A DNA stretch of 64,000 nt. Origin: Candidatus Omnitrophota bacterium. GTDB taxonomy: Bacteria; Omnitrophota; Gorgyraeia; Zapsychrales; Fredricksoniimonadaceae. A model generated the notes under the pieces. That model saw only the letters and a list, made by a program, of their open reading frames with translations. It was not told the origin of the DNA and did not search any database. Location: NCBI GenBank assembly GCA_903944345.1, contig CAJARJ010000020.1, positions 18,110-82,109 of the forward strand. Reading direction: 5' to 3'. Positions 7,466 through 43,430 of this stretch are shown here, in pieces; position 1 is the first letter of the stretch, and each line of letters begins with the position of its first letter. A program made the translations under genes and the position numbers.

Positions 7466-7508
7466 AGATAAAACCTGTTGAAAGTGTTGAAACTTCTAAA
7501 AAAGACCG

Positions 7509-7529: not shown

Positions 7530-7688
7530 TATAGGCACTCCCCCAGGAAAGTCAAAGCTTTAGAAATACAAAATTTACAAAGTCAAAACGGCATGATTGA
7601 AATAGCGGGAAAGTAAAGGAATAAATGCCAGAACCGCAATGCGCCCGGAAAGAATCGGTCGCCATGATTACTAAATTATCGCTTAGAG

Positions 7689-23749: not shown

Positions 23750-24856
<1,107 letters not shown>

Positions 24857-24992
24857 TCACACAGCCGCGCTCTCCTGGACAAAAGGAATGCGGTACGAAA
24901 TCCTGAAACTGTCCGGCGATTATAGCAAAAACCAGGATTTGGGCAACTGAATTTACATCTTGCCTGTCTTTGAATGTCGGCTGTCTATAGAC

Positions 24993-26270
24993 TCAGAAAT
25001 TAATCAGCAAGCCCGTGCTTTCGCTCAAAGGCTGCTCAAAATAACTCCCGCGATTTTCTTTGTACGAGTTTTCTGCCAGCAGACGAGCCCGGACAACGTC
25101 GGCAGAGCCTGACAGACGGCCCAGCATGTCCTTGTAAACAGCAGGGAAATACTCTTCTTCCCGGGCTGCAACAAGCACGGCGCGCAAAACCTCCCGCTTG
25201 TTTTCAATAATCGATCGATAGGCTTGCGGTAACCGCGGCAACAACAAACAATGCTCCAGGTAATTAATGGCCCGGATATAGACCTGCCGGGCCTCTGCCA
25301 GAGCCAGATGCGAAGAAAGCACCAAAACACGTGCTTCGCGAACAGAATCGGGCAGCATGTCCAACTGCGCCAGGATCCTGTCAGTAACCGGCACCCCGGG
25401 CAGAGACAAACGGATCAGCTTGCCCTCCGAGACCCGCCCGTCGAGCGAAAAATCTTCTGCCGCCTTCTGCCAGAGGGCGACAAACTCCTGCCGCGCCTCC
25501 GCGACAACAGAGGCAAAGGAACGTTTAGGAAAAACTTCGCTGATATCATTGGCTGTGATCACCACTTCCCCGCTGAGCGCGGCGACCTTGTCACCCTCAT
25601 TAAGCTGTGGAAGTCCCAGCAGTCCCACCGCATCACGCACAACATGCACTGACCTACGCCCGTCTTCAAGCGTCCCGGCATCCTGAATGCAGGGCAGAAA
25701 TGAAAACGGCGCTTTGACCTTGCGACAATCGCCAAGCGCCCGCATCAATCCGTTATCCTGCCTGGCCAGCAGACATTCCCGGACTGAAAGCTTGCGCAAG
25801 CGTTCGTTCAGGTTATCAGAGGGTAAATCCAGCCTTAATAGTCCCAGCTCTTCCAGCAACAAGCTCTGCATGGACTGTGTCCGGTAATGTTTAACAATAT
25901 CTGCCAGCGCGGGACTGGAATACGACAAACGCAACAGGTCATACGCACTGACCGGAACCTTATCCAGCAGGCGTCGGGATAAAAGAGGCCGCAGCCCCTC
26001 CTCAATTTCCTGCCGGAACGCCAGCTCACGATCGTCCAGGCGTACCGGCCGCAGCAGCGGGCCAGTCGAAGCCTTGTCCAGCTCGCTCACTTTGGCTTGG
26101 TGCTGTGCGCGGTCAAGGCCCGGTGTCCGATAATAACAAAACCCCCGGTCGTCAATAACCGCCTTGCGTAAACGGGTATCCGCAGGCGCGTCCGGTGCAA
26201 AAATATCAGCGGCCGCCGGCACTCCCACCAAAAGCAGAACCAGAGGGAACCATCTTAGAACAAACAGCAT
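24993..26270 (-). CDS. Secreted protein of unknown function, last gene of the Tra/Pil operon
   Basis: The signal peptide is MLFVLRWFPLVLLLVGVPAAADIF. The start at the ATG at 26270 has a GGAG RBS and overlaps the traU stop by 16 nt. I recognise no motif. Its size and position next to the TraU-like gene recall the PFL_4711-type partner in ICE T4SS, but this is unverified. Confidence 0.5.
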   Translation of the reverse strand: MLFVLRWFPLVLLLVGVPAAADIFAPDAPADTRLRKAVIDDRGFCYYRTPGLDRAQHQAKVSELDKASTGPLLRPVRLDDRELAFRQEIEEGLRPLLSRRLLDKVPVSAYDLLRLSYSSPALADIVKHYRTQSMQSLLLEELGLLRLDLPSDNLNERLRKLSVRECLLARQDNGLMRALGDCRKVKAPFSFLPCIQDAGTLEDGRRSVHVVRDAVGLLGLPQLNEGDKVAALSGEVVITANDISEVFPKRSFASVVAEARQEFVALWQKAAEDFSLDGRVSEGKLIRLSLPGVPVTDRILAQLDMLPDSVREARVLVLSSHLALAEARQVYIRAINYLEHCLLLPRLPQAYRSIIENKREVLRAVLVAAREEEYFPAVYKDMLGRLSGSADVVRARLLAENSYKENRGSYFEQPLSESTGLLINF

Positions 26271-27157
26271 TCTTTCTGTCTCCAATAAATCCAGACATAA
26301 CTGCCGTCCGCCGAACGCCGGCCGTTCTCCCACAGATCCGCCTGCTCTCCGACGCGCAAGCAACGGCTCTTTGACGGAAAGACCATCTGCAACCGATCCC
26401 TCAATTTGTCTGGCGAGAACATGGCCGGCACAATAATCCGATGCGGAACCAGCATGTTCAACGAAGCAATATCCACCGCCCGGTAGGCTGCCACGGCCGA
26501 GCCGACGGCCTCGCTATAATGAACCAGCTGTCCGGTCCGCGGAAACAACGGCCCCCAGCTGCCCAGACATGCCACAGCCGACAAAGGATGCAGGAAGTTC
26601 TCACACACCGGCCCGGCTGCGGCCAGAAGACGCGCCAGAGGATGCCCTGCTTCCCCGCGACCAACGCGCCACTCGGCAGCGTCAATCTCACTTAAATAGG
26701 ACAATGGCCCCGCAAGATCCGGGGGCCCCTCGCACGGCGCCAGAATAAGAGCAGACACCTGATCAGATAAAGGAAAACCGTAAACATGAACATCGTTCAT
26801 TTGCAAGGCCGTGGTGTCGGAGGCGTACGCGCTCCCGCTGTCGGGAGCGGCCTGACATTCCGCCGCCGCAGTAATGGTCTTGTTCCCCAATGACTGCAAA
26901 AACTTTCCCGCCAACGGACGCAATTCGTCAATCATGACCCGGCCCGGCATCTTGACGGTCTCAACAAGCAAGACCGGTTGACGGTAACGCACTCGCACCC
27001 CCACAAAAGGAGGAGTCGACCGCCGACAAACACCGATCACACGAAAATCCACACAATCCAGATCAGCGCGTAATGCCAGCGTGGACAGACTCTCAGCGCA
27101 GACAGGTACGGACAGCACAAGCCATATCAGCACAGAAACATTTATTACCCGGAACAT
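26255..27157 (-). CDS. traU: TraU-like conjugative T4SS periplasmic protein
   Basis: It has a signal peptide. YLSEIDAAEW compares with F TraU YLSEIDPTW. The C-terminal YVWIYWRQKECCLF compares with F TraU GYLMWRKRNCVFL. An AGGAGAG RBS is present. Confidence 0.75.
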   Translation of the reverse strand: MFRVINVSVLIWLVLSVPVCAESLSTLALRADLDCVDFRVIGVCRRSTPPFVGVRVRYRQPVLLVETVKMPGRVMIDELRPLAGKFLQSLGNKTITAAAECQAAPDSGSAYASDTTALQMNDVHVYGFPLSDQVSALILAPCEGPPDLAGPLSYLSEIDAAEWRVGRGEAGHPLARLLAAAGPVCENFLHPLSAVACLGSWGPLFPRTGQLVHYSEAVGSAVAAYRAVDIASLNMLVPHRIIVPAMFSPDKLRDRLQMVFPSKSRCLRVGEQADLWENGRRSADGSYVWIYWRQKECCLF

Positions 27158-27178
27158 AAGAGCTCTCCTGCCGGAACA

Positions 27179-28102
27179 TCAGCCGCAACGAATGATCCAG
27201 AACATGGCCAAAGACGGCTGCATATTATTGTGCGCCTGGCCGCCCCCAGCGTTTTCTGTCGGATGAAGATATGGCACCGCCGGAATATTGTCATAATCCA
27301 GCGACTCCGCGTTCCCTTGCGCTGACCCGCCCCACCCCTGATTCTCGCTGAAAGTGTAATCATACATATTATGCTTGTGAGCGGGCATTTCCGGGATCGT
27401 CAACACATGCATCTCTGCCCCCAGCCGGCCACCTAGTACCGATGCTGACGGATGACTAACCACATTCGCCGCACTGCCCGTCATATTGTCCATTCCAATG
27501 GGCACGCGTCCCCGAAGGTCAGGCAAGGCAAACGTACTTGTTCCGTCTCCAGCACCATAAACTGTACCGATCAACGCAAACAAAAGAGTGTACTGCTCAC
27601 GTGAAATCGTCCGGCCGTCGCAAGGCAACCAACCCTCAGGTATTGTCGTGCCGGGCCAGGGGATCATGCTGCCAATCGGAAGGGCGGCATCAGGATCCTG
27701 GGCAAAACCGATATCCGACTGCACCCGGCCGTCTTGAACAACGCTTATTGGTGTCATACGCGCAACAAAGGCGGACAGCTGCGCAGGAACTTCTGTCTCA
27801 AGCATCATCCCGGCCCCCGATGAAGATAAAACATACTGACCTCCAAAAGGGTTTTTGCCCTCCCACGCCGCAGGCATATAGCCACCCTCCCTTAAATTTT
27901 GCCAATTCTGCGGCCAGACATGCTCTTTACGCTGAAATGCCCTGACAGCCTCGGTGATCCGCCCTATCTCCGCGACCGTGATGCGGGCAGCCTCAAGCTG
28001 GACACCGCGCAGAACACCGGGCACAACAATACTGACCAGAAGCCCCGCAATCAGCAGAGAAATCGACAGCTCAATCAGAGAAAATCCCTTGTCCGACCCC
28101 AT
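27179..28102 (-). CDS. Minor type IV pilin fused to a phage tail-collar (MdpB-like) domain; putative tip adhesin
   Basis: The class III signal is MGSDKG|FSLIELSISLLIAGLL. The C-terminal half reads GWLPCDGRTISREQYTLLFALIGTVYGAGDGTSTFALPDLRGRVPIG...MPAHKH...GGGQAHNNMQPSLAMFWII, which is the Collar/MdpB signature. A GGAGGTGG RBS is present. Confidence 0.8.
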   Translation of the reverse strand: MGSDKGFSLIELSISLLIAGLLVSIVVPGVLRGVQLEAARITVAEIGRITEAVRAFQRKEHVWPQNWQNLREGGYMPAAWEGKNPFGGQYVLSSSGAGMMLETEVPAQLSAFVARMTPISVVQDGRVQSDIGFAQDPDAALPIGSMIPWPGTTIPEGWLPCDGRTISREQYTLLFALIGTVYGAGDGTSTFALPDLRGRVPIGMDNMTGSAANVVSHPSASVLGGRLGAEMHVLTIPEMPAHKHNMYDYTFSENQGWGGSAQGNAESLDYDNIPAVPYLHPTENAGGGQAHNNMQPSLAMFWIIRCG

Positions 28103-28110
28103 ACCACCTC

Positions 28111-28551
28111 CTAGAAAGTCGCCAGCCAGGTTTTGGCCCCTGCGTCATAGGAAAGTGTTTCCGCTTTCCCCCGAAACAATCTGGAAAGACCAGCCGCAGC
28201 ATTATCCGGCACACTCGAAAGCGCAATGTCCACCCGGGTGCGATCCGCTGTATTTGCGTTCACCCGATAATCACCGCCATAACTGTTTGCCCCCGTCGGG
28301 TCAAACGTAGCGGGCAAATACCCGGAACTCTTCATGGCTTCGATACTAATACCTTCATACGTCAGACTCATCACCGACAGATAGTTTTGCGCTGCCAGAC
28401 GCAGGTTATCAACCGACTGGGCCTCTCTTTGCAGACGTGCCTGCGCAGCCATCCCCCCTCCAGCACTAATCATGCCGACGAGCATGGCAATAAGTCCCAA
28501 TGCAATCGAAAGTTCAACAAGAGAAAAACCATCATTTTTGTTTACTCGCAT
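28111..28551 (-). CDS. Type IV pilin (probable major subunit)
   Basis: It has the prepilin leader and N-methylation motif MRVNKNDG|FSLVELSIALGLIAMLVG. It also has the strongest RBS of the operon (AAGGAGGAGCGG-ATG). Confidence 0.8.
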   Translation of the reverse strand: MRVNKNDGFSLVELSIALGLIAMLVGMISAGGGMAAQARLQREAQSVDNLRLAAQNYLSVMSLTYEGISIEAMKSSGYLPATFDPTGANSYGGDYRVNANTADRTRVDIALSSVPDNAAAGLSRLFRGKAETLSYDAGAKTWLATF

Positions 28552-28582
28552 CCGCTCCTCCTTTTTTATTTTAAAACACCCC

Positions 28583-29662
28583 TCATGGGTGCATCATCCC
28601 TATATTTGCCAGATTCCCATACAGCGGCCTGAAAAAGGCAAAAACCAGCAACGCCATCACCCCCGCACACAGAAGGATCAACGCCGGCTGCAAAAAATCA
28701 ACAACCCGCTTGACCCGGGACTCCAGAGAACGCCGGCATAGCTGGTAACCCCGGAAGAAATACTCGTCAAGGCATCCGGATAACTCCCCGACTCTAAGAG
28801 TCTCGCCAACCCAGGAAGGGAAATACGCATCCTGCAAAAACGCGGACGACAGCATCTGCCCGCTGACCAGTCTGGTCCGGCAAGAATTCATGTGATAACG
28901 AGTCCGGCCTCCCGACGCGACAGCTGCCTCCGCCAGAGATTCATCCAGAGTAATTCCGCTTTTAAGCATCAACGACAACAGAAAAAATCCCATGGCCAGC
29001 TCCCGATCCCGAATCAGTCGCCCCACAAAAGGACACCGGGCCTGCCAGCCCGAGAACACAAGCGGCTCGGTTCTTTGCACCAGCCAAAGTCCGCCAACGA
29101 TAAGTAAGACAATTCCCAGCCAAAACGGCCACTGCATCCTCACTGTGCAAGCCAGACGCAACATGCCCCCGGTCAAAGGCCCGGAAAAAGTGCTCTGCGG
29201 CAAAAGGCTGCCCAGCCGCGGAACAATCTCGAACGAAATATAACCGGCAACCAAAAGCAGAATGACCAGCACAAACAAAGGATATCCCATAGCTCCAGCC
29301 AGCTGATGTCCTACCTCGTCGCTGGCATGGTAATATTCCGCCAAAGCCCGGGCTGAACGGGAAATTTGTCCTGCCTTGCCGGCAGCGTTGAGTGCGCGCA
29401 AGGCACATTCTTCGAAAATACCGCACTCCCCCATGGCCTGCCCAAGAGACAAGCCCCGGTCAAGGGAACGAAGCATATGCGCACAGGCCCGCGCCAGCGT
29501 CCGGCTTCCGGAAGCCCCTTCGAGGCAGCGCAGCGCGGCACCAAGCGAGAGTCCGGCAGAAAGCATGTTGGAAAGATCTTCGAAAAAGAACGCGGCCTCA
29601 GCCGCCGACAGCTTCTGCCCGGAATAGAATATCCTTAACCAAGAACCCTGACCGCTTCGCAT
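28583..29662 (-). CDS. Type II secretion / type IV pilus platform protein (GspF/PilC family)
   Basis: It has two repeats of the T2SSF pattern (FFFEDLSNMLSAGLSLGAAL; FFLLSLMLKSGITLDESL) and three TM blocks. The start is set at the ATG at 29662, which has a GGAAGGAG RBS; the ORF-track start at 29854 would overlap the ATPase gene by 220 nt. Confidence 0.8.
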   Translation of the reverse strand: MRSGQGSWLRIFYSGQKLSAAEAAFFFEDLSNMLSAGLSLGAALRCLEGASGSRTLARACAHMLRSLDRGLSLGQAMGECGIFEECALRALNAAGKAGQISRSARALAEYYHASDEVGHQLAGAMGYPLFVLVILLLVAGYISFEIVPRLGSLLPQSTFSGPLTGGMLRLACTVRMQWPFWLGIVLLIVGGLWLVQRTEPLVFSGWQARCPFVGRLIRDRELAMGFFLLSLMLKSGITLDESLAEAAVASGGRTRYHMNSCRTRLVSGQMLSSAFLQDAYFPSWVGETLRVGELSGCLDEYFFRGYQLCRRSLESRVKRVVDFLQPALILLCAGVMALLVFAFFRPLYGNLANIGMMHP

Positions 29663-31245
29663 AACGACAACACTCCTTCCCTGACCAAACGACATGCATC
29701 TGCACGCATAGAAACAAACCCCGCGCGGGCGGCCTGCCGGGGCACAAGTTCGCTCATTAACCCCTGCTCGATAAGAAACCGGTCTTCTTCCTCTATACAG
29801 AAAATCTCGGCCACCACTGTCCTCCCGCTGAAGCCACCCCGGCAAGCGGAGCACCCAGCGGGGACAAAAAATTTCCGGTCACTGTGCAAAAGATATGCCT
29901 CGGCACCCGAAGGGATGCCACGGATATCCCCTTCCTTACGGCATTCCGGGCACAATTTACGCACCAGACGCTGGGCTATCACACAATTTAAAGTTGCGGC
30001 CAGATGCGCCCAATCCACGCCAAGGTCTCGCAGACGAAGAAAAGCTCCGGTCGCACTATTGGTATGCAGAGTAGAAAAAACCCGATGTCCGGTCTCTGCC
30101 GCCCGGACAGCCTCGCGAGCGGTTTTCTCGTCGCGAATCTCTCCGACCAGTACAATATCCGGATCATGCCGCAACAAGGCTCTGGTCACATCCGGAAAAT
30201 CGTATCCCTTGGCGCTGTCAACACTGACCTGGGTGACACATGAAGCCCGTACTTCAACCGGATCTTCCACAGATACGATCTTGATCTCGCTATCTTTTAC
30301 CCGACCGATCATGGCATGCAGTCCAGTGGTCTTACCGCAACCGGTCGGACCGGTGATTAAAACCAGTCCATGCGGACGCCGCAAGACGCGCTCCAGCACC
30401 TTCTGGTGTTCCGGCGAATATCCAAGCGGTTCCAGGGACATGGCTTCCCGCCCGCGTTCCAAAAGACGCAAAACCAGCGCAGAACCATTTAAAGACGGCA
30501 AATGGGAAACACGCACATCGACGACCCGTCCCCTGGCCTCAAATTCGAAACGGGCATCATGGAAACGCAAAAAGTCCCCCGCGCTGATCCCGGCACGCCG
30601 AAAAACCCGATTGACAAAAAATGGATGCTCTCCCAGCGGCCAGGAACGGTGAAAATGCAAAACACCGTCGATACGCAACCGGCTCTCGAAAGAAGACGAC
30701 GAAGGCTCGATATGAATATCTGTTGCTCCGGCAACTACAGCCTCGACCAGAATCCGGGCAACAGGATCATCGTCACCGGAATCCGCCCCTTCCGGTTCAG
30801 GACTGACACCACCGCCTGAAGAAGGCCTCAACAACTGCAAGGCCCGGTCAAGAGCACGCGGGGCGGCAACCATAAAAAAGATCTGCGAACCAAAAAGAGC
30901 CCTTAACTCATCGGTCAGTCCGGTCTGCAGGGTATCAGCCAGCACAAAAAATCGGCGTACGGCGCTCCGGGCCGGAAAAATCTTGCGCTTCCTGAAAAAG
31001 TCTTCCCCCAAAGCAGACAAAGCCTCCTGATCCACGCTCCAGTCTCCGTCATAATACGGCCACCCCGACTGCTCTGCTACAGCCCGCGCCACATCTTCTT
31101 CCCGACTCAAATGCTGTTCGACCAGTATCCGTCCCAGACGCCGGCCGCCGCCCTGCGCTTTTTGCACGGCCAGACACATGCTCAAATCTCCTGGACGCAA
31201 CTTATTGCGGCGTATAAGTATAGATCCAAGCCTTTCAGCACTCAT
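29635..31245 (-). CDS. Type IV pilus / T2SS assembly ATPase (PilB/GspE family) with an MshEN-like N-terminal domain
   Basis: The Walker A motif is GPTGCGKTT. The Asp box and Walker B lie at IVSVEDPVE...VLVGEIRD. The His box is TGHRVFSTLHTN. The tetracysteine motif is CPEC...CSAC. Confidence 0.9.
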   Translation of the reverse strand: MSAERLGSILIRRNKLRPGDLSMCLAVQKAQGGGRRLGRILVEQHLSREEDVARAVAEQSGWPYYDGDWSVDQEALSALGEDFFRKRKIFPARSAVRRFFVLADTLQTGLTDELRALFGSQIFFMVAAPRALDRALQLLRPSSGGGVSPEPEGADSGDDDPVARILVEAVVAGATDIHIEPSSSSFESRLRIDGVLHFHRSWPLGEHPFFVNRVFRRAGISAGDFLRFHDARFEFEARGRVVDVRVSHLPSLNGSALVLRLLERGREAMSLEPLGYSPEHQKVLERVLRRPHGLVLITGPTGCGKTTGLHAMIGRVKDSEIKIVSVEDPVEVRASCVTQVSVDSAKGYDFPDVTRALLRHDPDIVLVGEIRDEKTAREAVRAAETGHRVFSTLHTNSATGAFLRLRDLGVDWAHLAATLNCVIAQRLVRKLCPECRKEGDIRGIPSGAEAYLLHSDRKFFVPAGCSACRGGFSGRTVVAEIFCIEEEDRFLIEQGLMSELVPRQAARAGFVSMRADACRLVREGVLSLCEAVRVLG

Positions 31246-31697
31246 AACTCCACCCTCAGGACAATAGTTTCCCCCTGCGCACCTGTCAGAATTGCACCAT
31301 TTTCATCAAGCGAACTGACTTCAAAACCGCCAACACGCTCTTTTTCCCTTGCCCAAACTTGCTGGGCATCAAACTGAAAACAGCCCCGCCAAATCCCCGC
31401 GATAGAAACAACCGAACGCAAGGATAGCGTCAGCGACTGCGCCCGGGAAACCCCGTCCTTCGCTATATCACTGACCTGCAATGGGATATCCGTCCCTATT
31501 TTTTTTAACTCGTGCTCTACTCTGGCTTTTTCCAGATCAAGCTGCAACAGACGCAAGGATTGCTCTTTATCCTGCACACTGGAAGAATATGCTCTTAAGC
31601 GCGACAAAGATTCCTTCATATCCTCTTCTCCTGCTCTGACCGGACCTGACTGCAGCAAAAATGCTGCCACAATTACGGCTATTCCTGTTTTGATCAT
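31242..31697 (-). CDS. Periplasmic coiled-coil protein, PilP-like by position
   Basis: It has a signal peptide (IAVIVAAFLLQSGPVRAGE), a coiled coil and a short beta-rich C-terminus. It has ATGA overlaps at both ends. The assignment is positional only. Confidence 0.35.
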   Translation of the reverse strand: MIKTGIAVIVAAFLLQSGPVRAGEEDMKESLSRLRAYSSSVQDKEQSLRLLQLDLEKARVEHELKKIGTDIPLQVSDIAKDGVSRAQSLTLSLRSVVSIAGIWRGCFQFDAQQVWAREKERVGGFEVSSLDENGAILTGAQGETIVLRVEL

Positions 31698-32188
31698 CCT
31701 TTCACCTGCTCCCCTTTCACAACAATGACCAGCGTTAATACATCTTTTGTTTGTTTAAACTCTTCGAGCTCGAACAATCCTGAACGCATCCCCCCCGAGA
31801 TCACCGCCAACACCCGGCCCAGCATGGCCCGGTCACGGACAGACCCCAGCGATACCTGCAGGCGCGAAGAGTCCAACCCGTCGGCAGCCTCTGGCGAATC
31901 TGTGGAGGTCTGCCCCAAAGAGATTGTTTGCAGAAACACCGAAACTCCTTCCGCCCGGGTCAGATCCTGCAAAAATAGCGTCAGTCGTTCATGCGCCCCT
32001 GAAAGATCATCCGGTCGGCTGTGCGGTAAACTTTGCAAATTCTTTAAACGGCCCCCATCTTGCTGTAACCGGACACGAATCTCCTGCAAGGAAGTCTCCA
32101 CTGCGCGGACAGACTGGTAAACCCCAAGACCATTGTATAAACAGGACACAACCAATCCGCCGGCAAACAGCACAAGAAACAAGCGCAT
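31694..32188 (-). CDS. Bitopic inner-membrane protein, PilO/GspM-like by topology
   Basis: It has a single N-terminal TM (LFLVLFAGGLVVSCLY), a coiled coil and a small periplasmic domain. The assignment is positional. Confidence 0.35.
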   Translation of the reverse strand: MRLFLVLFAGGLVVSCLYNGLGVYQSVRAVETSLQEIRVRLQQDGGRLKNLQSLPHSRPDDLSGAHERLTLFLQDLTRAEGVSVFLQTISLGQTSTDSPEAADGLDSSRLQVSLGSVRDRAMLGRVLAVISGGMRSGLFELEEFKQTKDVLTLVIVVKGEQVKG

Positions 32189-32210
32189 ACCTTCCCTCTC
32201 TCAACAGACA

Positions 32211-35220: not shown

Positions 35221-37723
35221 GTGGCATCTTTCCGGCGCACACCATAAGCGCCCTGGTGAGGTTCCCATCCTGTTGACGACGAATTTCATCCAGAAATTCG
35301 TTCTCCCTGGCATCGCTGGTTGCCGCCCAATACAAAAAAGGATCAGGAGCCAGACGAATGACCCCGCCGCCTGTACCGGCAAGCAGCAAAGCTTCTGAAT
35401 AGCGCCCCCGCACCGTAACCAGAGAACGCAAAAGTTCCCCGGTCTGCGGACTAAAGGCCAGCTCCCGGCACAACCGTTCAATAATCCCGCTTTCCTGACG
35501 TAAAAATATCTTGTGCGCGCTATTCGCCAGGATGGCCAATCCTGCCGGCTGCTGCAACAAGTCAGCGGTTTCCTGGGTCACCGCCACAGCCGCACAGCGA
35601 TATTTCCGAAACGTTTTGAAAGCCGCCGAAATGAAATCCGCTGTCGATGACGTTTTTAACAACTGCCAGGCCTCATCAATAATCAGAAACTTGTTTTTAC
35701 CGCGCAATTCCTCGGCCGAAACAAAGCCGGTTATCAAAAACATGATATTAAGCAAGGCCACCAGTTGCAGATCCGGGTAACGGGAGATTTGTGCCAGTTC
35801 AAAGACCGTAAAACGTCCTCCGGGTGCAAATTGATTCTGCCCGTCAAAGAAAGCCCCATACTGTCCCCTGCGGGTATAGGGCATAAGTCGCAGGGCCAGG
35901 CGAAACGCCATATCTGCTCCGCTGACCCCGGCGAAACAAACCGAAGGATCTTCCAGAACGGATACCACATCGCTTAGAACCAGCTCCCGACTACTGTTTT
36001 GATCATGCCGGGCATACGCCTCCAGCACAGCCAGATGCAGAACCCCTTTCTCTTCCCGCGAAAGGCGGTCACGTTCGTCCCCTCCGCTGGCCATTAATGC
36101 CAGCATATCTACCAGAAAAGCCAGCCCCTCGGACTGAAGCGTCCTGGCAAAAGGATTTATCAACACCGGGGAAGACATATCGAGTGAAACATAGCTGCCA
36201 CCCAGCACCTCGCAGGTCTTCCGGTAAGAGTGCCCCTTGTCGAGCACAAAGAAATGCGCTCCGGTCCGGTAGTTCTGATGAATAAAATCATTGGTAAAAA
36301 ATGATTTCCCTGCTCCTGAAGCGCCAATAATCACCGCATGCGGATTGGTGTCGGAATCAAACAGATCGAAGAACACCGGCTCCCCCCTGCGGTTAAGATA
36401 AACCGCCGCCGGCGTGCCAGTTCCCTGGAAGGCCCCATATAAAGGAAGCATATCCGCAAGATTGTCCGATAACATTCGCCTTTTACGTCGGATAAAAGGT
36501 TCGCGGCGATGATCATAATTCAATGGCAGGCAAGTCAGAAACAATGACGACCCGATAGCATCTTCCCGCACAGCCTGCATTCCACTGCGGCCCAGAAGAT
36601 GAATAATATGATCGGCCTGTCGCAACGACTCCTGCTCGTCAACACTGCCGCAGACAAAATGAATCCTGGCCTCAAGAACCGACTGTCCTCCCTGAAAAAG
36701 CCGGCTAATGACCGCACTAAGCTCTTCTTTCTTGCCTACGGCCTCCTCGCTGACATCTCCCAGCGAGGAAGACCGACGGATGAAAGCAAAAGCTTTCTGT
36801 GCCTTGAGCTTGGCGAGCGCCCGGCTCTGATCAGGCACAATAAAGTTGAAGACCATAGCCATATCGCCCAGCTCATCCCAGAAGCTTCCTCTGTGCCCGG
36901 CCAGCAACATCCCGGCGAAAGTCTGTGCGGGAAGCTCTTTAATGGTGACCATCCGCAGGGTCGTGCCGTCAAGTTTCAGCCCTTCGGAAGATATTTTCAC
37001 CGGACTATACAAAAGCTGATCCCGAATAAAACCCTGATCCCGAACGGGAGGCGGAACATGCTGCGAACGGCGGGGATTGAGCATTTTATACAAAAGAGCA
37101 GTTATGTCCTTTCCATCCAGGCAGACACAGGCAAGCCCCAGTGAACGCAGACCATTCTCGATCTGGCGAACCTGCCGCAAAAATTTCTCTTTATGTTCCT
37201 GCCATTGAAGAGAAATGACGCGTGACACCTGACGAGTATCACAAAAGAAAGCCTCTGCCCTGACCCCGCCAGGCACATTCCGCCAGGAAGGAAAGACGCG
37301 CACCGAGAAAATCAGCCTGATCCGCCTGACTTTCACTCGGTCCATCGTTTGTCCGTTTCGCGCCAGTGCGACCATGGAGGTCAAACGGCTGTCAAGCGCT
37401 GCGGCCACCACTTCCGAATTCTGCGCGCAACCAAACAAGCGATAACGCTCCAGCAAAGGCTCAATATCATCACTCCCCCATAGAATCACCTGCGCGTGTA
37501 CATCCGACGGAAGAGTTCCGATAAAAGCGGCCAATCCCAAAGAAAATTTTTCCCGCTCCTCGTCACAGGCCAGCTCCACATCACGGCTGACGATTTGCCA
37601 GACCCGACCCAGGCTGCCATCAACATTCAGTAATACGCCCTCAACCTCTTCTGCATAGGGCAAGTAATCAGCCAAAGATGGGCCATCGGCAAAAAGCTTG
37701 TTTATATCCTGGTCTTTCAACAT
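35207..37723 (-). CDS. traC: TraC/VirB4-family T4SS ATPase
   Basis: It is 838 aa. The N-terminus is F-TraC-like (LPYAEEVEGVLLNVDGSLGRVWQI). Walker A is IIGASGAGKSFF and Walker B is FLIIDEAWQLL. Confidence 0.9.
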   Translation of the reverse strand: MLKDQDINKLFADGPSLADYLPYAEEVEGVLLNVDGSLGRVWQIVSRDVELACDEEREKFSLGLAAFIGTLPSDVHAQVILWGSDDIEPLLERYRLFGCAQNSEVVAAALDSRLTSMVALARNGQTMDRVKVRRIRLIFSVRVFPSWRNVPGGVRAEAFFCDTRQVSRVISLQWQEHKEKFLRQVRQIENGLRSLGLACVCLDGKDITALLYKMLNPRRSQHVPPPVRDQGFIRDQLLYSPVKISSEGLKLDGTTLRMVTIKELPAQTFAGMLLAGHRGSFWDELGDMAMVFNFIVPDQSRALAKLKAQKAFAFIRRSSSLGDVSEEAVGKKEELSAVISRLFQGGQSVLEARIHFVCGSVDEQESLRQADHIIHLLGRSGMQAVREDAIGSSLFLTCLPLNYDHRREPFIRRKRRMLSDNLADMLPLYGAFQGTGTPAAVYLNRRGEPVFFDLFDSDTNPHAVIIGASGAGKSFFTNDFIHQNYRTGAHFFVLDKGHSYRKTCEVLGGSYVSLDMSSPVLINPFARTLQSEGLAFLVDMLALMASGGDERDRLSREEKGVLHLAVLEAYARHDQNSSRELVLSDVVSVLEDPSVCFAGVSGADMAFRLALRLMPYTRRGQYGAFFDGQNQFAPGGRFTVFELAQISRYPDLQLVALLNIMFLITGFVSAEELRGKNKFLIIDEAWQLLKTSSTADFISAAFKTFRKYRCAAVAVTQETADLLQQPAGLAILANSAHKIFLRQESGIIERLCRELAFSPQTGELLRSLVTVRGRYSEALLLAGTGGGVIRLAPDPFLYWAATSDARENEFLDEIRRQQDGNLTRALMVCAGKMPHGLR

Positions 37724-37725
37724 CT

Positions 37726-38133
37726 CTATGGCTCCTTGGCCGTATCCGGAACTTGCGGAATAATGACGGACATCTCCTGATCCATTCCCTGTTGTCGATC
37801 AATAAACCATTCGGCCGGGCGCAACATCACAAATGCCCAGTGCCCGCCAACCATTACCTCCCGCTCTCCTCCGGAAACATGCGCGGGCACCCAGACTTTG
37901 ATAACCTTGGGAGGAAGAACAACGGGGACATACGGCTTCACATGCCCTGTATCGACTCCCCAAACCACCGTTTGTGACTCTTTCTCTGCCCCCGAAGACC
38001 GGGCAGCAGCACGATACGTTCCTCCCAAGGTCACAGCGTCTTTCCTGACGACACTCACCGGACCTCGTGCAGACAAAGAGCAGCCGCTAGTCAACAGAAC
38101 GATAAAAATCAACCGAATCCCGAGCCATCCCAT
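37726..38133 (-). CDS. TraV-like outer-membrane lipoprotein (VirB7 analogue)
   Basis: It has a lipobox-like N-terminus (LIFIVLLTSGCSL) and is small. It sits in the position between traB and traC, as in F-type operons. Confidence 0.5.
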   Translation of the reverse strand: MGWLGIRLIFIVLLTSGCSLSARGPVSVVRKDAVTLGGTYRAAARSSGAEKESQTVVWGVDTGHVKPYVPVVLPPKVIKVWVPAHVSGGEREVMVGGHWAFVMLRPAEWFIDRQQGMDQEMSVIIPQVPDTAKEP

Positions 38134-39241
38134 GGATACGAAATCCTTTCTGTACGATCACATACACACGTACTCCCGGTTGAACCATCACTGCCGGAAC
38201 AATCATGTCCAGTTGCTGCTGGTAGTACCGCGACAACTGTGCGGTGCTCTGGGCCATCCCCGAAAAAAGCGCATGTTTGGCCGCATTGCCGGTCAATGTC
38301 CGTGACTCTTTCCCGTCTTGCGTAACGGCAGAGACTTCCCCGTCGGCGACAGCCTGCGAAGCTCCGCCCATAAACCCACTCATAAACGATGCCGCCAGAC
38401 GCCCTGCGGTATTGCGCACAACCACACCTTTAAGCCCCAGCTGCCCCGAACGATCCGTCAAATACCCGAAAACTCCCGACTGTTCAAAACTTGCTCCTGT
38501 CGGAAAAACAGCCGCCAGTTTTTCCGCTTCAATCAAAGCCCGCTCGCTGTTAAGATCGCCCGTCGCCTTGCCCAGAACAAAAGCTCCTTCAAGTGCAATC
38601 GCCGAAGCATTCGGACCGGTAAAGGCTTCATCAAGCCTGATCAGGACGGGCAAAGAATTGTTCCCGTCCGCCGGAGCGTACACTCCGGTCAACAGTGTCC
38701 CCGACACAAAGCTGCCCGCCGGCAGATACACATCCATGGACTCCTGATCGGGTTCCTGCACGGCTACTATGTCAAGCTGCTGGCGTGATTCTGCCCCATT
38801 CTTGTCTGCTGGTTCGCTCCCTTCCCTACGTAACCGTTTGGCAACCGCCTGCAGGCTCAGCACAGCAGTTTTTGTTTTCTTTATCGATTCACGCATCTCC
38901 TCGAACCTGGTGTTAAGTTTTGTAACCTTGCGGGACATTTCGTCATTCTTGCGTGCGACACTGTCATATTGTTTTTCCAGGCGTTCGACATAAGCCTTGC
39001 GATCCACCTCTTCTCCCAGAAACATTCCTCTGCCCGTATCTTTAAGTTGCCCTGTCGAAGAAACAGCCTGTACGACACCATGAGACTCCTGCCCTTTGCC
39101 TCTCTCCTGTTTTGACGAAAAGACAAACATCAGGACAAAAAAAAGAGCCGCTCCCGCCGCAATAATCAGCAGACCGCTCTTCTCACTTCCGGACCCAACC
39201 CTTTCAAACAAACCGCGCAAGCGGGCTAACAAATCTTTCAT
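38087..39241 (-). CDS. traB: TraB/VirB10-family T4SS core protein
   Basis: It has an N-terminal TM, a coiled coil and then the TrbI/VirB10-type barrel region LPAGSFVSGTLLTGVYAP...LPVLIRLDEAFTGPN...GDLNSERALIE...GYLTDRSGQLGLKGVVV, which resembles F TraB. Confidence 0.75.
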   Translation of the reverse strand: MKDLLARLRGLFERVGSGSEKSGLLIIAAGAALFFVLMFVFSSKQERGKGQESHGVVQAVSSTGQLKDTGRGMFLGEEVDRKAYVERLEKQYDSVARKNDEMSRKVTKLNTRFEEMRESIKKTKTAVLSLQAVAKRLRREGSEPADKNGAESRQQLDIVAVQEPDQESMDVYLPAGSFVSGTLLTGVYAPADGNNSLPVLIRLDEAFTGPNASAIALEGAFVLGKATGDLNSERALIEAEKLAAVFPTGASFEQSGVFGYLTDRSGQLGLKGVVVRNTAGRLAASFMSGFMGGASQAVADGEVSAVTQDGKESRTLTGNAAKHALFSGMAQSTAQLSRYYQQQLDMIVPAVMVQPGVRVYVIVQKGFRIHGMARDSVDFYRSVD

Positions 39242-39957
39242 CGCCTTAACACCAGATACAGGGTTGTAGAATCACTCTTACGTCCGCGTGCCTGCAAGAT
39301 GTCTCGCTCAACCGTGCCAAGCAGCAGTCCCGGCAAACTCAACCTTTGCAGAGGAATCACCAATGCCCGACCAAGCAGATTCTCAGCCCGCACCACCCAT
39401 CCTTTAAGTTGGGCTGTCGTATAACTCCTGATCACAGTCAGACGCATGGTCTTATCCTGCCAGAGCAGCTCCGAATCGCTTGACTCCGTCGCGCCAGAAG
39501 GCTTTTGCCCTAAAACCATGGCCTTGAGCATGCCCAAAGCATGATCTTGCCTGAAGGAAACAGCGGCCGTATCTCTGGAGATATAAATACGTTCCCCCGA
39601 AAAAACCTGTTGCTCAAGAGAAAGCTCCGAGGAGGAAAACCTGATCCTGAAAGAACGACCTCCACGATCAATAATCACCAATTCAGAATTATCACAACGC
39701 CGTGGCGTAACAAAAACCCGGCCGGGCGCATGTTCTACCTCGAGCGCTTCGGAACTTCCTGAACGAACCAGGTGCGACACTCCGCCCTCGACAACTATCT
39801 CGGTCATGTGCCCCGGAGTGCACGCAATCAGGCTGCTTCCCTCTTGCTCAATACGTAGCGGCACCTGCGCCTCGGCCAAAGTACAGACAAAACATAATCC
39901 AAGAACAAAACCCAAGACCCTAAAGCGCATCCTCATCTGCCTCCTTTGACCAGACAT
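39238..39957 (-). CDS. TraK-like (VirB9 analogue) periplasmic / outer-membrane core protein
   Basis: It has a signal peptide (VLGFVLGLCFVCTLAEAQ) and is about 240 aa and beta-rich. It lies between the traE-like gene and traB, with an ATGA overlap to traB. The assignment is mainly positional. Confidence 0.55.
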   Translation of the reverse strand: MSGQRRQMRMRFRVLGFVLGLCFVCTLAEAQVPLRIEQEGSSLIACTPGHMTEIVVEGGVSHLVRSGSSEALEVEHAPGRVFVTPRRCDNSELVIIDRGGRSFRIRFSSSELSLEQQVFSGERIYISRDTAAVSFRQDHALGMLKAMVLGQKPSGATESSDSELLWQDKTMRLTVIRSYTTAQLKGWVVRAENLLGRALVIPLQRLSLPGLLLGTVERDILQARGRKSDSTTLYLVLRR

Positions 39958-40507
39958 CCTCTACAACAAGACCATAAATATTCTCTCCAGCCGCCGGGAC
40001 TCGCCGCACAACAACAACATAACGCACATCTTTCATTGCAATTTCTTCCTTGCCCATATAAACCCCGCGCTTGCCGTCGATTTCTACCCGGAATGAGCGC
40101 CCTTCGGAAGCAACCCGTGCGTCATCTGTAAGCGTAAATATCGATGAAAGCCGGTCAGAAAGAATCTTTCCGCGTTCCTCCTGCGAACGGGCGCGGACTT
40201 TGGAAAGCAGCTGTGGTCCCATAAACCGGAAAGCCCGCGAATAAACTCCGTCAATCGTCTCTGGAGTATAATTCATCCAGTCCATTAACCAGGCCGAAGC
40301 GAAAGAAAGAACCGAACTTTCTGGTATCCGGTCGGGATAAGCCAGGCCCGCTTGTGCTGCCCCCGGAATATAATAGATCGGACGGGGCCGAAACGCTGTC
40401 ACCGCCAGCAATACAGCGAATATCACGCTTAAGCTTCCCAAAAGATAAAGAACATAATGCAGTTTTACATTCTCGAATTCCGCTCCGGCATAACGTTCAA
40501 AAAACAT
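39920..40507 (-). CDS. TraE-like (VirB8 analogue) bitopic T4SS protein
   Basis: The start is trimmed to the ATG at 40507, which has an AAGGAAGG RBS. It has a single N-terminal TM (YVLYLLGSLSVIFAVLLAVTAF) followed by a periplasmic domain of about 150 aa. It follows traL. Confidence 0.5.
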   Translation of the reverse strand: MFFERYAGAEFENVKLHYVLYLLGSLSVIFAVLLAVTAFRPRPIYYIPGAAQAGLAYPDRIPESSVLSFASAWLMDWMNYTPETIDGVYSRAFRFMGPQLLSKVRARSQEERGKILSDRLSSIFTLTDDARVASEGRSFRVEIDGKRGVYMGKEEIAMKDVRYVVVVRRVPAAGENIYGLVVEDVWSKEADEDAL

Positions 40508-40793
40508 CCTGGCCTTCCTTGCTATAAATGCTGTAAAAACGCTCGGGCCCCGGCGGCAGCAATCCTCTGAAGCCAACTCCCTGCCGGTACAGCCAATGAA
40601 TCAGATATCCTTCCGGTTTCCCGCGCTTGAACGCGGCCAGACATGGCCAGATGAAAAACAACGCGATCAACGGAACTGCCGGAGAAAACACAATTGCCGG
40701 TACCCCGCACAATAAAAGAATCACAGCGACATCTTCACCCTCAAGGCCCAGAATAAGAAGAGGCCGGTCAATTGTTCTTGGACACGGTTTCAT
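40497..40793 (-). CDS. traL: TraL-like (VirB3 analogue) small membrane protein
   Basis: It is 98 aa. The pattern IDRPLLILGLEGEDVAVILLLCG fits the TraL pattern (xxD.P..ilG...de followed by a TM). It lies directly after the pilin gene. Confidence 0.6.
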   Translation of the reverse strand: MKPCPRTIDRPLLILGLEGEDVAVILLLCGVPAIVFSPAVPLIALFFIWPCLAAFKRGKPEGYLIHWLYRQGVGFRGLLPPGPERFYSIYSKEGQDVF

Positions 40794-40794
40794 T

Positions 40795-41082
40795 TTATCC
40801 TCCGAATATCCCCAGAAAATTGGGCAGAAATACCAGCGCCAGCAAGGCTAAAACACAACCCACCGCGGCCCCGTACTCCTGATGAATAATTTTCCAGACC
40901 CCAATAAGTAAAAATACCAGCGCCAGAACCTTGGAAGCCGGTCCGGTCATAACCTTGACCATAAAATCCGCCAGACCGTTAAATTCCGTCACCGCCCGTT
41001 CCTGTGATCCCGACTGGGCAAAAGCAACCTGGCTCCACAAACTTAAGATCATCCCCGCCAAAACAGGCAACACCTTCTTCAT
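40795..41082 (-). CDS. VirB2/TraA/TrbC-type conjugative pilin
   Basis: It is 95 aa. The signal peptide ends AFA|Q, and two hydrophobic helices follow (VLALVFLLIGVW; VGCVLALLALVFLPNFLGIF). An AAAGGAG RBS is present. Confidence 0.6.
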   Translation of the reverse strand: MKKVLPVLAGMILSLWSQVAFAQSGSQERAVTEFNGLADFMVKVMTGPASKVLALVFLLIGVWKIIHQEYGAAVGCVLALLALVFLPNFLGIFGG

Positions 41083-42344
41083 ACGGCTCCTTTAACTGTC
41101 GGTTGAAAAATCATCTTTGCTCTCGTGAAAAATAAAAGCGCGCTCACCAGGACACACCCAAGAATAACGACAATCCCGACAGCCACTCCCACAGCCACTC
41201 CCAGAGATTCACGAAAGCCCTGCAGATCACTCCGCAGCAAAATAACCCGGCTGCAACTATCCAGAACCGTCAGACAAAACGGGCAAAGTTTGAGTACTAA
41301 CAACCCGCGAAAATACCCCAACAGAATATCCAGATTGCCTTTGAGCATAACAGCCAAAAGAAACACAGGAAAAAAGACATACCAACCGGCAAGCATTCCT
41401 CCCAGAACATAGGGCCAGCCACTCAAGACCATACGAGCCGCCGCAAGAAATTTGTCGAAAAGCTCATATGCCGGAATAACCCCGTCCTGACAAAACTTGT
41501 CCTGACAGGTAAAAACACCATATTCCCCCGGTCTGCGCTGCGTTTCCAGAATCAGAAAATCCCTGACCGAAAGCTCTACAACCGGACTTTGCAGACCAAA
41601 CAGCCTGTGAGCCTTCTCTAATAAGTGATTCTTGCCATCAAGATACTTATATAAAGACTCCTGCAATTCCCCCCAGCGACGCCCATCCTGCGCGGAATAT
41701 CGTGCAACCACCCTGGAATCTCCCGGCCATAATCCGGACGGCATAAGGCTGTTATTTTCCGACACAAGTCTTTTCAGAACAGGAAGATATGTTTCCGAAT
41801 AGAATACTTTCACCTGCTCCTTAAGACCGCCATCAGCAATGCCCTGTGAAAAAAGACGCGCCACCAGAACCGAAAGATTGATTGGCAGAAACGGACTCTT
41901 CAGAAAACCCTCTCCGGCAACCTCTTGAACTTCCATAATATTGATGAGATTATTGGAGAACCCATTCAATAGCTGCACTGTCGTCAAGAAAACCGGATTA
42001 ATCGTCAGCCTGCCCAACCCATGTTTTTCCAACAAGCCCGTTGTTGAAACCTCCCTGAAACCTCGTTCTTCCATAACCGACGGATATCCCGCAAGCTCAG
42101 TCGAGGGCAAAACAAATAACATCCATACACTAAAAAAAATCAAACAAAACATCATAAAAGGACGAATACTCCCCGCGCGGACAGATCGCCACAATGCCAG
42201 AATAAACCCCAGACCAAAAAGACTTTTGCCAAACGCACTTTGCAGAAAAAGAAATTCAATAAGAGCGTGTGAGCGATCCAGGCCTATTAATTCAAAAGCA
42301 TTCTCAACGGGCGTTATGGCTGACAACATCATTAGATTGTCCAA
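41079..42344 (-). CDS. Polytopic inner-membrane protein, first gene of the operon; possible VirB6 / TraG-N analogue
   Basis: It has several TM segments at both ends flanking a soluble loop of about 200 aa. The ORF-track start is a TTG at 42344; ATGs at 42332 and 42329 are alternatives. The functional guess is positional only. Confidence 0.4.
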   Translation of the reverse strand: MDNLMMLSAITPVENAFELIGLDRSHALIEFLFLQSAFGKSLFGLGFILALWRSVRAGSIRPFMMFCLIFFSVWMLFVLPSTELAGYPSVMEERGFREVSTTGLLEKHGLGRLTINPVFLTTVQLLNGFSNNLINIMEVQEVAGEGFLKSPFLPINLSVLVARLFSQGIADGGLKEQVKVFYSETYLPVLKRLVSENNSLMPSGLWPGDSRVVARYSAQDGRRWGELQESLYKYLDGKNHLLEKAHRLFGLQSPVVELSVRDFLILETQRRPGEYGVFTCQDKFCQDGVIPAYELFDKFLAAARMVLSGWPYVLGGMLAGWYVFFPVFLLAVMLKGNLDILLGYFRGLLVLKLCPFCLTVLDSCSRVILLRSDLQGFRESLGVAVGVAVGIVVILGCVLVSALLFFTRAKMIFQPTVKGAV

Positions 42345-42373
42345 TGGTCAATTTAGTTGACAATTACTCAACA

Positions 42374-42401
42374 AATATAGCATAAATTGACATCATGTCA
42401 A
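42374..42401 (-). promoter_or_regulatory. Sigma70-like promoter of the Tra/Pil operon (-35 TTGACA, 16-nt spacer, -10 TATATT)
   Basis: Read on the minus strand. TTGACA is the complement of 42396-42401 and TATATT is the complement of 42374-42379. The -35 element is embedded in the perfect palindrome ATTGACAT-C-ATGTCAAT (42386-42402). Confidence 0.45.
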
Positions 42402-42449
42402 TGATAATTTTGATTGTTTATCAAATAAAAAGACTTCGGAAGGAGTAAA

Positions 42450-43427: not shown

Positions 43428-43430
43428 TCT

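Follow-up and report, generated by a model that had tools for sequence, protein, structure and literature searches.

We analyzed a 64,000-nucleotide stretch of the Candidatus Omnitrophota contig CAJARJ010000020.1 (hereafter the window), whose listing of open reading frames (ORFs) contains 19 consecutive co-directional minus-strand ORFs running from 42344 down to 24993. These ORFs, numbered here g01 to g19 in the direction of transcription, encode a type IV secretion system (T4SS) comprising a TraG_N/VirB6 protein, a VirB2-type pilin, TraL, TraE, a TraK/VirB9-like protein, TraB, TraV, TraC, TraU and TraH, together with a second TraV-like lipoprotein (TraV2) and a filament module of eight genes: a secretin, three alignment proteins, a GspE/PilB ATPase, a GspF/PilC platform, a pilin and a pilin with a collar-domain adhesin. 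The original prediction, made from the sequence alone, had placed a pilus block inside a T4SS operon, and the Pfam-supported gene identities put the block truly within the T4SS gene set. Identities were assigned with Pfam and NCBIfam profile searches, family hidden Markov models (HMMs), hhalign and profile comparison against the PDB. The locus was surveyed in one genome per GTDB species, which returned 79 loci (given L numbers below where they need to be told apart) onto which the 19 window proteins and the family HMMs were mapped.

The 19 genes form a single tightly packed block, as had been claimed. When the likeliest start of each gene is taken, spacing at the 18 junctions lies between -80 and +31 nt, the largest gap being 31 nt, and neighboring genes overlap at 11 of them. 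Start/stop overlaps of 4 nt occur at six junctions, and GGAG/AGGAG-like motifs precede most of the gene starts. Four of the five ATGA overlaps listed originally are present (at 41079, 39238, 34789 and 31242); the fifth, at 33335-33338, is GTGA with an ATG immediately after it (GTGATG), and an additional ATGA that was absent from the earlier list lies at 31694-31697. In keeping with the single promoter predicted originally, the best sigma70-like match within 24000-43500 is a minus-strand site at 42374-42401 just upstream of g01 (TTGACA, 16 nt, TATATT, with an extended TG) that agrees with the consensus at 11 of 12 positions; this is a consensus match only, Omnitrophota promoters being uncharacterised. 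We infer that the 19 genes are co-transcribed from this one promoter, and the co-expression suggested originally is plausible.

Among the predicted T4SS genes, Pfam confirmed TraL, TraE, TrbI/TraB, TraC_F_IV and TraU and matched VirB2/TrbC and TraV weakly, while seven proteins of the operon (g01, g05, g09, g11, g12, g13 and g19) had no direct profile match. The first gene, g01 (41079-42344), had been described as a polytopic membrane protein, and the description holds, with at least four transmembrane (TM) segments and a loop of ~230 aa. Its identity can now be narrowed to a TraG N-terminal/VirB6-like channel component, since orthologs at three related loci (L022, L032 and L062) pass the Pfam TraG_N cutoff of 36.1 bits with 53.4, 52.8 and 40.5 bits. 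The window protein itself has no Pfam match, and the g01 family HMM gave a weak match to a TraH-TraG_N fusion protein, in its TraG_N half. The second gene, g02 (40795-41082), encodes a putative VirB2/TraA-type T4SS pilin with a signal peptide and two hydrophobic helices, recognized from weak matches to Pfam TrbC/VirB2 (E 4.4e-4, below the cutoff) and NCBIfam TraA_gammapb (E 3.6e-4). TraL (VirB3-like; g03, 40497-40793) scored above both cutoffs (Pfam TraL 28.7 bits, cutoff 24.4; TIGR02762 31.7 bits, cutoff 30.95). TraE (VirB8-like; g04, 39920-40576) reached 31.2 bits against Pfam TraE (cutoff 24.8) and likely starts at 40507, which gives the same 195 aa as the gene call in the locus of a sister strain (L087).

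The next gene, g05 (39238-39957), had no direct Pfam match and a weak one to TIGR03749 (E 0.0055). Its family HMM matches ORFs at the TraK position of Bdellovibrionota loci, which in turn match Pfam CagX/VirB9 above the cutoff, and this transitive homology together with its position between TraE and TraB suggests a TraK/VirB9-like periplasmic protein. TraB (VirB10; g06, 38087-39241) matched Pfam TrbI at 82 bits, had F-type TraB as its top NCBIfam match and, as a family HMM, scored 137 bits against IncC TraB. The TraV lipoprotein (VirB7-like; g07, 37726-38133) falls slightly short of the Pfam TraV cutoff (19.1 bits, cutoff 21), with a family HMM match to IncC TraV (E 2e-5) and a lipobox in the family consensus. 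TraC, the VirB4 ATPase (g08, 35207-37723), matched Pfam TraC_F_IV at 88 bits (cutoff 28) and P-loop_TraG; its top NCBIfam match was F-type TraC (TIGR02746, 392 bits, equivalog cutoff 567), and its identity to plasmid TraC proteins is at most 28%.

The two T4SS genes at the far end of the operon are TraU (g18, 26255-27157; Pfam TraU 99.5 bits) and g19 (24993-26270). The top NCBIfam match of TraU was TIGR03756, the integrated conjugative element (ICE) type, at 63 bits, compared with 27 for F TraU. The g19 product, originally described as a secreted 425-aa protein, is indeed secreted and all-alpha, and we can now identify it as a divergent TraH. It had no direct Pfam or NCBIfam match, and word-indexed homolog searches found only six proteins for it (and two for g01). 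Searching 1.84 billion representatives with a profile built from seven g19 homologs retrieved 148 clusters, and 22 of the 83 members scanned match Pfam TraH (best E 1.9e-11). At locus L032 the g19 homolog follows TraU, a thioredoxin-like protein and TraF, which is the F-type placement of TraH. Comparison of the Omnitrophota families with single IncC TraH, TraG, TraK and TraA sequences by hhalign was negative, single templates being too weak for this purpose.

Of the T4SS and pilus proteins scored, TraL alone passed its NCBIfam equivalog cutoff, which makes the T4SS a distant F/G-lineage relative outside the catalogued families. The MPF_G models all scored below their cutoffs (TIGR03756 63 of 188 bits, TIGR03752 40 of 241, TIGR03750 22 of 71, TIGR03749 16 of 139 and TIGR03744 114 of 521). 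From the F-specific periplasmic set, TraU and the divergent TraH are present; TraF, TraW/TrbC, TraN, TrhF and DsbC were not found in the 64-kb window, nor was a coupling protein or a MobH relaxase. TraF is present in L032.

The filament module begins with the secretin g10 (33335-34792; Pfam Secretin 99.8 bits), which has no lipobox. Its NCBIfam scores were all below the cutoffs (MshL 184, type IVb PilN 153, PilQ 110 and GspD 99 bits), and its closest plasmid relatives are PilN-family secretins. The three alignment proteins follow. The g11 product (32211-33338) is bitopic, with a cytoplasmic domain, one TM segment (residues 235-253), a coiled coil and a periplasmic alpha/beta domain, a topology that resembles GspL/PilM-PilN. 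We obtained no sequence match for it in Pfam, NCBIfam or the PDB, the last searched also with a g11 profile. A single-sequence AlphaFold2 model was poor (pLDDT 40), and its Foldseek matches reflected a generic ferredoxin-like C-terminus. Across the loci, g11 always accompanies the secretin. The g12 product (31694-32188) is a periplasmic protein anchored by one N-terminal hydrophobic segment, with no Pfam or NCBIfam match, and its conserved position and topology are those of a GspM/PilO-like protein. For g13 (31242-31697), a secreted protein with a coiled coil and a C-terminal beta-domain, weak but concordant evidence points to a putative secretin binder of the GspC-HR/PilP/GspB kind: the top PDB match of the family profile was the GspC HR domain (7OIO_A, E 0.054), followed by GspB (4WFW), and ORFs from the g11-g13 positions of the surveyed loci matched Pfam T2SSB (four members) and T2SSC (two members).

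The assembly ATPase g14 (29635-31245) is of the GspE/PilB type (Pfam T2SSE 326 bits; NCBIfam GspE 334 bits, cutoff 630, and PilB 330 bits, cutoff 676). An MshEN-like c-di-GMP motif covers residues 5-59 at the N-terminus (NF053729, 37.9 bits, cutoff 38). Public gene calls differ in the start of g14, giving 514 or 536 aa, and the location of the MshE-type motif in the long form supports the ATGA-coupled 536-aa start. The GspF/PilC platform g15 (28583-29854) carries two Pfam T2SSF domains and has GspF as its top NCBIfam match (127 bits, cutoff 424); its likely start is 29662, in agreement with gene calls of 359 aa. The major type IV pilin g16 (28111-28551; Pfam N_methyl) has the leader MRVNKNDG|FSLVEL, in which the 8-aa length, Phe+1 and Glu5 are of the type IVa/type II secretion system (T2SS) kind. 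The second pilin, g17 (27179-28102), combines N_methyl with a C-terminal phage-tail-collar/Gp10_C-like adhesin domain (Pfam Collar, 90 bits, and Gp10_C), and its leader MGSDKG|FSLIEL is 6 aa long with a G|F cleavage site and Glu5.

Pfam thus confirmed the predicted secretin, T2SSE, T2SSF, N_methyl and Collar parts. The type IVb (R64/PAPI-1) label that had been attached to them fared less well: the gene order and the nearest plasmid secretins agree with it, but the pilins are of the type IVa/T2SS type and the ATPase and platform of the GspE/PilB/GspF type. The window contains no homolog of a prepilin peptidase (A24), an SLT transglycosylase or a retraction ATPase (PilT). Given the short G|F leaders, the MshL-best secretin, the GspE/PilB ATPase, the GspF platform and the lack of peptidase, transglycosylase and retraction ATPase, the module is, judged from its sequences, an unclassified type IV filament module, and its membership in the type IVb class is unsupported.

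Between TraC and the secretin lies g09 (34789-35220), which had been counted as a lipoprotein of the pilus block. That placement was not borne out: family-against-family comparison of g09 with TraV (g07) by hhalign gave a probability of 97.4% (E 1.6e-11), and g09 is also present in L032, a locus with T4SS genes only. Because g09 is a TraV paralog that also occurs at the T4SS-only locus, the pilus insertion is located between traV2 and traU. Comparison of g09 with PilL/TcpQ and PilM by hhalign was negative. In three different metagenome-assembled genomes (MAGs; L010, L011 and L012), a single ORF contains, in frame, a signal or lipoprotein leader, the TraV2 motif and a whole secretin; in the L011 fusion, a match to g09 residues 66-117 (50% identity, E 3e-13) is followed by one to the window secretin (46%, E 8e-142). 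The junction of TraC, TraV2 and secretin is also the most conserved feature of the operon, the secretin lying no more than 2.6 kb from TraC in 38 of the 41 loci that extend at least 3 kb beyond TraC. The motif common to TraV and TraV2 corresponds to the C-terminal part of TraV, and in the F-type core complex of pED208 the TraV C-terminal domain forms a belt that holds the TraK C-terminal domains (PMC8617172). The same paper calls TraV a hub of interactions with TraH, TraF and TraW (PMC8617172). In view of the secretin fusion and the belt role of this part of TraV in pED208, we propose TraV2 as a specific candidate for the adaptor that would join the secretin to the outer-membrane core of the T4SS and through which the secretin may dock on that core. 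The fusion in three species argues for a physical linkage of the two halves, lending some support to the physical coupling that had been raised as a possibility.

The same gene order was found in ~40 Omnitrophota species and in independent assemblies of the window's own organism from several samples, and is shared in part by Nitrospirota MAGs, so the search for synteny in related genomes proposed with the original prediction returned the nested order well beyond the window. The closed genome of Ca. Velamenicoccus archaeovorus carries the operon at 602710-625241 (L022). Nearly all TraC homologs with 42-55% identity were found in MAGs that carry the label Omnitrophota or Omnitrophica, and one belongs to Ca. 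Velamenicoccus archaeovorus. In the sister strain, whose TraC is 92% identical, the operon occupies the same rml-flanked chromosomal site, and the 18 genes compared have equal lengths except for TraB (384 compared with 385 aa). The ratio of nonsynonymous to synonymous divergence (dN/dS) between the window and the sister strain was 0.04-0.25 for all 18 genes compared (dS 0.35-0.8) and 0.05-0.14 for the flanking rml genes. All 18 operon genes compared are under purifying selection, and the shared site and the dN/dS values indicate that the locus is functional and stably chromosomal at this timescale. The flanks differ among more distant species.

In a crude neighbor-joining tree of TraC, which carries no support values, all secretin-linked loci fall in one clade, with the conjugative-type Bdellovibrionota loci outside it and L032 inside. 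This grouping suggests that the nesting is old and that L032 probably reflects a secondary loss; the idea that L032 preserves the state before the insertion was therefore rejected. The Bdellovibrionota TraC loci were likewise rejected as relatives of the hybrid, having an ordinary layout with a coupling protein and no secretin. Two to four TraC contigs were seen in single MAGs (L017, L021, L023 and L039 in CAYOMI01; L005 and L045 in JADFWS01; L053 and L055 in JAYVSG01), which may represent paralogous systems, mixed strains or mobility. One contig with TraL-TraE-TraB-TraV-TraC-secretin (L046, JAVZXS010000008) is binned as 'Candidatus Micrarchaeia archaeon', probably a binning error.

The surveyed loci differ in composition. 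The window type has the full T4SS and pilus set and no coupling protein. In the Velamenicoccus clade the same set is accompanied by three additional ORFs between TraG_N and the VirB2 pilin: one of ~90 aa, one of ~255 aa with a weak Replic_Relax match, and a coupling protein of ~760-790 aa. The coupling protein and the Replic_Relax-like ORF of this variant suggest that the family is capable of exporting DNA or protein. The ~255-aa ORF (L022, 2113-2877; also in L016, L020, L024, L025, L032 and L033) sits just upstream of the coupling protein, has a best Replic_Relax E value of 3e-6 and contains a PD-(D/E)xK-like motif; a small relaxase or nuclease is a possible identity. An ORF with an RNase-like NYN domain lies between TraL and TraE in V. 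archaeovorus only (L022, 6133-6807).

The pilus genes are present to different extents. In nine loci that have the secretin, at least 6 kb of downstream sequence contains no PilB-like ATPase gene, and these loci keep secretin, g11 and g12 beside T4SS genes. Five of the nine, close relatives of the window that were mapped in detail (L005, L006, L007, L015 and L049), read TraC-TraV2-secretin-g11-g12-TraH, without g13, the ATPase, platform, pilins or TraU. L032 carries TraG_N, a coupling protein, the core genes, TraV2, TraU, TraF and TraH, with no secretin or pilus genes. The Nitrospirota MAGs read TraE..TraB-TraV-TraC, a transglycosylase, TraF, a TraV2-like lipoprotein, secretin, pilins and ATPase. 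The window encodes two pilins and some species three. Toxin-antitoxin pairs, either MazF/PemK-like with a ribbon-helix-helix partner or RelE with a helix-turn-helix partner, occur in or beside the operon (L005, 13867-14446; L015, 15963-16536; L012, 4490-5090), and in L005 and L015 the MazF-type pair sits exactly at the position of the missing ATPase-to-TraU block. In L055 (JAYVSG010000040, 4-6616) the order is a circular permutation, TraC-TraV2-secretin-g11 directly preceding VirB2-TraL-TraE-TraK-TraB, and g11 is longer than usual (515 aa). A conserved large protein of 774-1290 aa with no Pfam match is encoded next to the operon, on the upstream side in one species and on the downstream side in others (L012, 2029-4353; L006, 17274-20471; L049, 17759-20653; L009, 12195-16067) and has no homolog in the window.

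The chromosomal setting of the window does not agree with the conjugative element that had been assumed originally. Housekeeping genes lie on both sides of the operon (GAPDH, MTHFR, rmlABCD, glycosyltransferases, radical SAM enzymes, a two-component system, HisG, a SurA-like peptidyl-prolyl isomerase, ABC-F and RluD). We found no integrase in the window, no Pfam relaxase among the flanking ORFs, and no Pfam recombinase, including the shufflon type, among the 19 operon ORFs. The GC content of the locus (0.53-0.57) and of its flanks (0.48-0.54) shows no sharp island boundary. A DNA search of the locus against plasmids produced no match, and the nearest plasmid TraC genes sit in ordinary F-type layouts without nested genes. 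Contigs as long as 630 kb carry TraC together with housekeeping genes, and the window matches a metagenome scaffold of 335 kb. With no coupling protein, relaxase or integrase in the window, the locus in this lineage is not a self-transmissible element; either the coupling protein is encoded elsewhere, or the system does without it and serves adhesion, pilus biogenesis or uptake.

Two other features of the surroundings were noted. Separated from the downstream end of the operon by one gene (GAPDH), the minus-strand ORF at 17598-23540 encodes a 1980-aa protein with a papain-like C1 peptidase, PKD domains, five InlB B-repeat domains and long internal repeats that are ~49% identical, which could be a surface or secreted effector. 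The minus-strand regions 797-9134 and 15218-16693 encode four B12-binding radical SAM proteins as well as SPASM and further radical SAM proteins, heptosyltransferases, methyltransferases and a UbiA prenyltransferase, resembling a large region for envelope glycan or lipid modification around the operon.

That a conjugative T4SS can be associated with a type IV pilus is already known. Both R64 (IncI1; pilI-V with an I-type T4SS) and ICEs of the PAPI-1/ICEclc class (MPF_G, pilL-V) have this association, as does the window. In the R64/PAPI-1 class the pilus is encoded in a separate operon on a mobile element with a relaxase and a coupling protein, has type IVb pilins and includes PilL, PilT, PilU and a shufflon. 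The window differs in having a single chromosomal operon, an F/G-lineage T4SS, short-leader Phe+1 pilins, a secretin without a lipobox and a TraV paralog linking the two halves. With the Y. pseudotuberculosis p153kb cluster as the thin-pilus reference, the order secretin, accessory proteins, ATPase, platform, pilin and tip adhesin of conjugative thin pili matches the window, and the nearest plasmid secretin, ATPase, platform and pilin are of the PilN, PilQ, PilR and PilS types. The window has no homolog of a prepilin peptidase or of the p153kb lytic transglycosylase, its 19 operon ORFs include no shufflon-type recombinase gene, and the locus has no PilL, PilT or PilU. The type IVb PilN model (TIGR02520) gave the window secretin its 153 bits against a cutoff of 288. 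Neither the g09 nor the g11 family HMM matched PilM, PilO2 or PilP of p153kb, and hhalign against single p153 PilO2, PilM and PilL sequences was negative, single templates being weak.

Compared with MPF_F systems (F/pED208, IncC and the compact traL-E-K-B-V-C-H-G set of the Desulfosarcina BuS5 plasmid), the window shares TraL, TraE, TraK, TraB, TraV, TraC, TraU, TraH, TraG_N and the VirB2/TraA pilin, and keeps the core order L-E-K-B-V-C. It departs from the F type in having a free-standing TraG_N as its first gene, a second TraV and eight nested pilus genes, and also in the missing TraN, TraW/TrbC, TraF, TrhF, DsbC, coupling protein and relaxase. The filament module is likewise reminiscent of the MSHA, T2SS and type IVa pilus systems, given its MshL-best secretin, GspE/PilB ATPase with an MshEN-like N-terminus, GspF platform, GspC/GspB-like g13 and type IVa/T2SS leaders. 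The equivalog models of these systems all scored below their cutoffs (MshL 184 of 250 bits, GspE 334 of 630, PilB 330 of 676 and GspF 127 of 424), and the module differs in its gene order, which is unlike msh, gsp or pilMNOPQ, in having two pilins, one with a tail-collar adhesin, and in lacking PilT and PilD.

Type IVa pilus and Tad clusters have been reported in Omnitrophota (PMC10066038), as has a GspD/E/F-RcpC cluster beside giant genes (bioRxiv 10.1101/2023.11.21.568195). The reported clusters resemble the window in their secretin, ATPase and platform and have a proposed role in host or prey contact. No Tra or VirB4 genes or nesting are mentioned for them. The window locus adjoins GAPDH and rml genes, with no giant gene or F-type ATPase beside it. 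Our literature search, which did not take in the V. archaeovorus description paper, found no report of Tra genes in Omnitrophota and no T4SS-pilus hybrid described anywhere. What is new is the nesting within a single operon, the chromosomal non-mobile state, the duplicated TraV with its secretin fusion, and the phylum-wide conservation in uncultivated nanobacteria.

On balance we lean toward the proposal that this chromosomal, phylum-conserved operon encodes a composite envelope apparatus made of an F/G-lineage T4SS and a type IV filament module. The 19 genes would be co-expressed from one promoter with translational coupling; a filament tipped by the collar adhesin would be assembled through the secretin and capture another cell; TraV2 would tether the secretin to the TraK-TraB-TraV outer-membrane core; and a channel powered by TraC would move macromolecules between cells. 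What is transported and which way it moves are matters that we infer, as is any part played in attaching to or attacking a host or prey cell. Omnitrophota have been proposed to be predators or parasites (PMC10066038), and the finding of predator RNA in dead prey cells points to a transfer of molecules (PMC13153191). Any link between the operon and predation or parasitism would be drawn from these published views of the phylum and from the RNA transfer into prey, not from this locus. A bolder version, which we offer tentatively as possible rather than probable, is that the whole forms one integrated nanomachine in which the TraV-derived lipoprotein docks the secretin on the T4SS core, the filament serves as a grappling hook and nucleic acids or proteins are injected or withdrawn through the channel. 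Such a machine would be a contact weapon or feeding device of ultra-small Omnitrophota and a new hybrid class of secretion system.

Several observations weigh against the composite apparatus. The missing coupling protein means that classical substrate export is not obviously possible from the window unless that protein is encoded elsewhere, and the locus also lacks a retraction ATPase and a prepilin peptidase. The modules are separable, as seen in the nine loci without a PilB-like ATPase gene and in L032, which has no secretin or pilus block. Internal promoters may exist within the operon, g11 and g12 are putative assignments made from topology and position, and the multiple TraC contigs in several MAGs together with the differing flanks would also fit mobility.

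This last point leads to the alternative that survives best, although we consider it fairly unlikely, namely that the operon is the mating apparatus of an ICE whose pilus stabilises mating in liquid, as in R64 and PAPI-1, the coupling protein, relaxase and integrase having been lost from a window copy that is now domesticated or decaying. The coupling protein and Replic_Relax-like ORF within the operon of the Velamenicoccus clade and L032 speak for such an origin, as do the conjugative PilN type of the nearest plasmid secretins, the extra TraC contigs, the species-dependent flanks and the toxin-antitoxin pairs in or beside some loci. A decaying remnant is hard to reconcile with purifying selection on all 18 genes compared and with gene lengths that are kept in the sister strain but for one residue of TraB. 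The sister strain also has the same chromosomal site, the flanks are housekeeping genes, the 64 kb hold no integrase, relaxase or coupling protein, and the complete V. archaeovorus genome contributed a single locus to those returned. Finally, the locus has no DNA similarity to plasmids, and its TraC is at most 28% identical to the plasmid proteins.

It is unlikely that the operon simply houses two independent machines, a pilus or T2SS-like system for adhesion or secretion and a separate, uncoupled T4SS. Such independence would agree with the pilus genes forming one contiguous block that is absent from L032, with the absence of the ATPase-to-TraU block from five loci (nine in all having no PilB-like ATPase gene), and with the ordinary GspE/F/G-type appearance of the ATPase, platform and pilins. 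Against it stand the TraC-TraV2-secretin junction in 38 of 41 loci and the fusion of a T4SS-derived TraV paralog to the secretin in three species. Where pilus-assembly genes are absent, secretin, g11 and g12 nevertheless stay beside T4SS genes, and the nesting persists across Omnitrophota and into Nitrospirota MAGs.

We also considered an uptake apparatus, in which a T4SS without a coupling protein would act with the secretin and pilus in bringing in DNA or other macromolecules from cells that have lysed or are attached. Helicobacter ComB, a T4SS that has no coupling protein, provides the model, and a secretin and pilus are the usual front end of DNA uptake. The window of this lineage does lack a coupling protein and relaxase, and Omnitrophota genomes are reduced, with host dependence thought likely (PMC10066038). 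We find this explanation very unlikely, since Pfam detected no ComEA, ComEC or DprA in the locus, the Velamenicoccus clade has a coupling protein in the same operon, and TraU and TraH are F-pilus assembly and mating factors that are not known for uptake. An assembly artefact joining two unrelated loci, the chimera against which the original prediction had warned, is refuted to a negligible chance, both junctions recurring in independent samples and assemblers, the sister strain, the closed genome and ~40 species.

The composite apparatus would bear on how these organisms live. Omnitrophota are widespread, uncultivated and ultra-small bacteria that are thought to be predators or parasites, and the operon is a concrete candidate for the molecular means of their contact with hosts. 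It occurs in the one enrichment-cultured predator of the group, Ca. Velamenicoccus archaeovorus. For the study of secretion systems, this would be the first case found in which T4SS and type IV pilus genes sharing an operon, a secretin fused to a lipoprotein of T4SS origin, and a chromosomal, non-mobile F-lineage system occur together, with bearing on the domestication of conjugation machines and on the combination of two great families of envelope machines.

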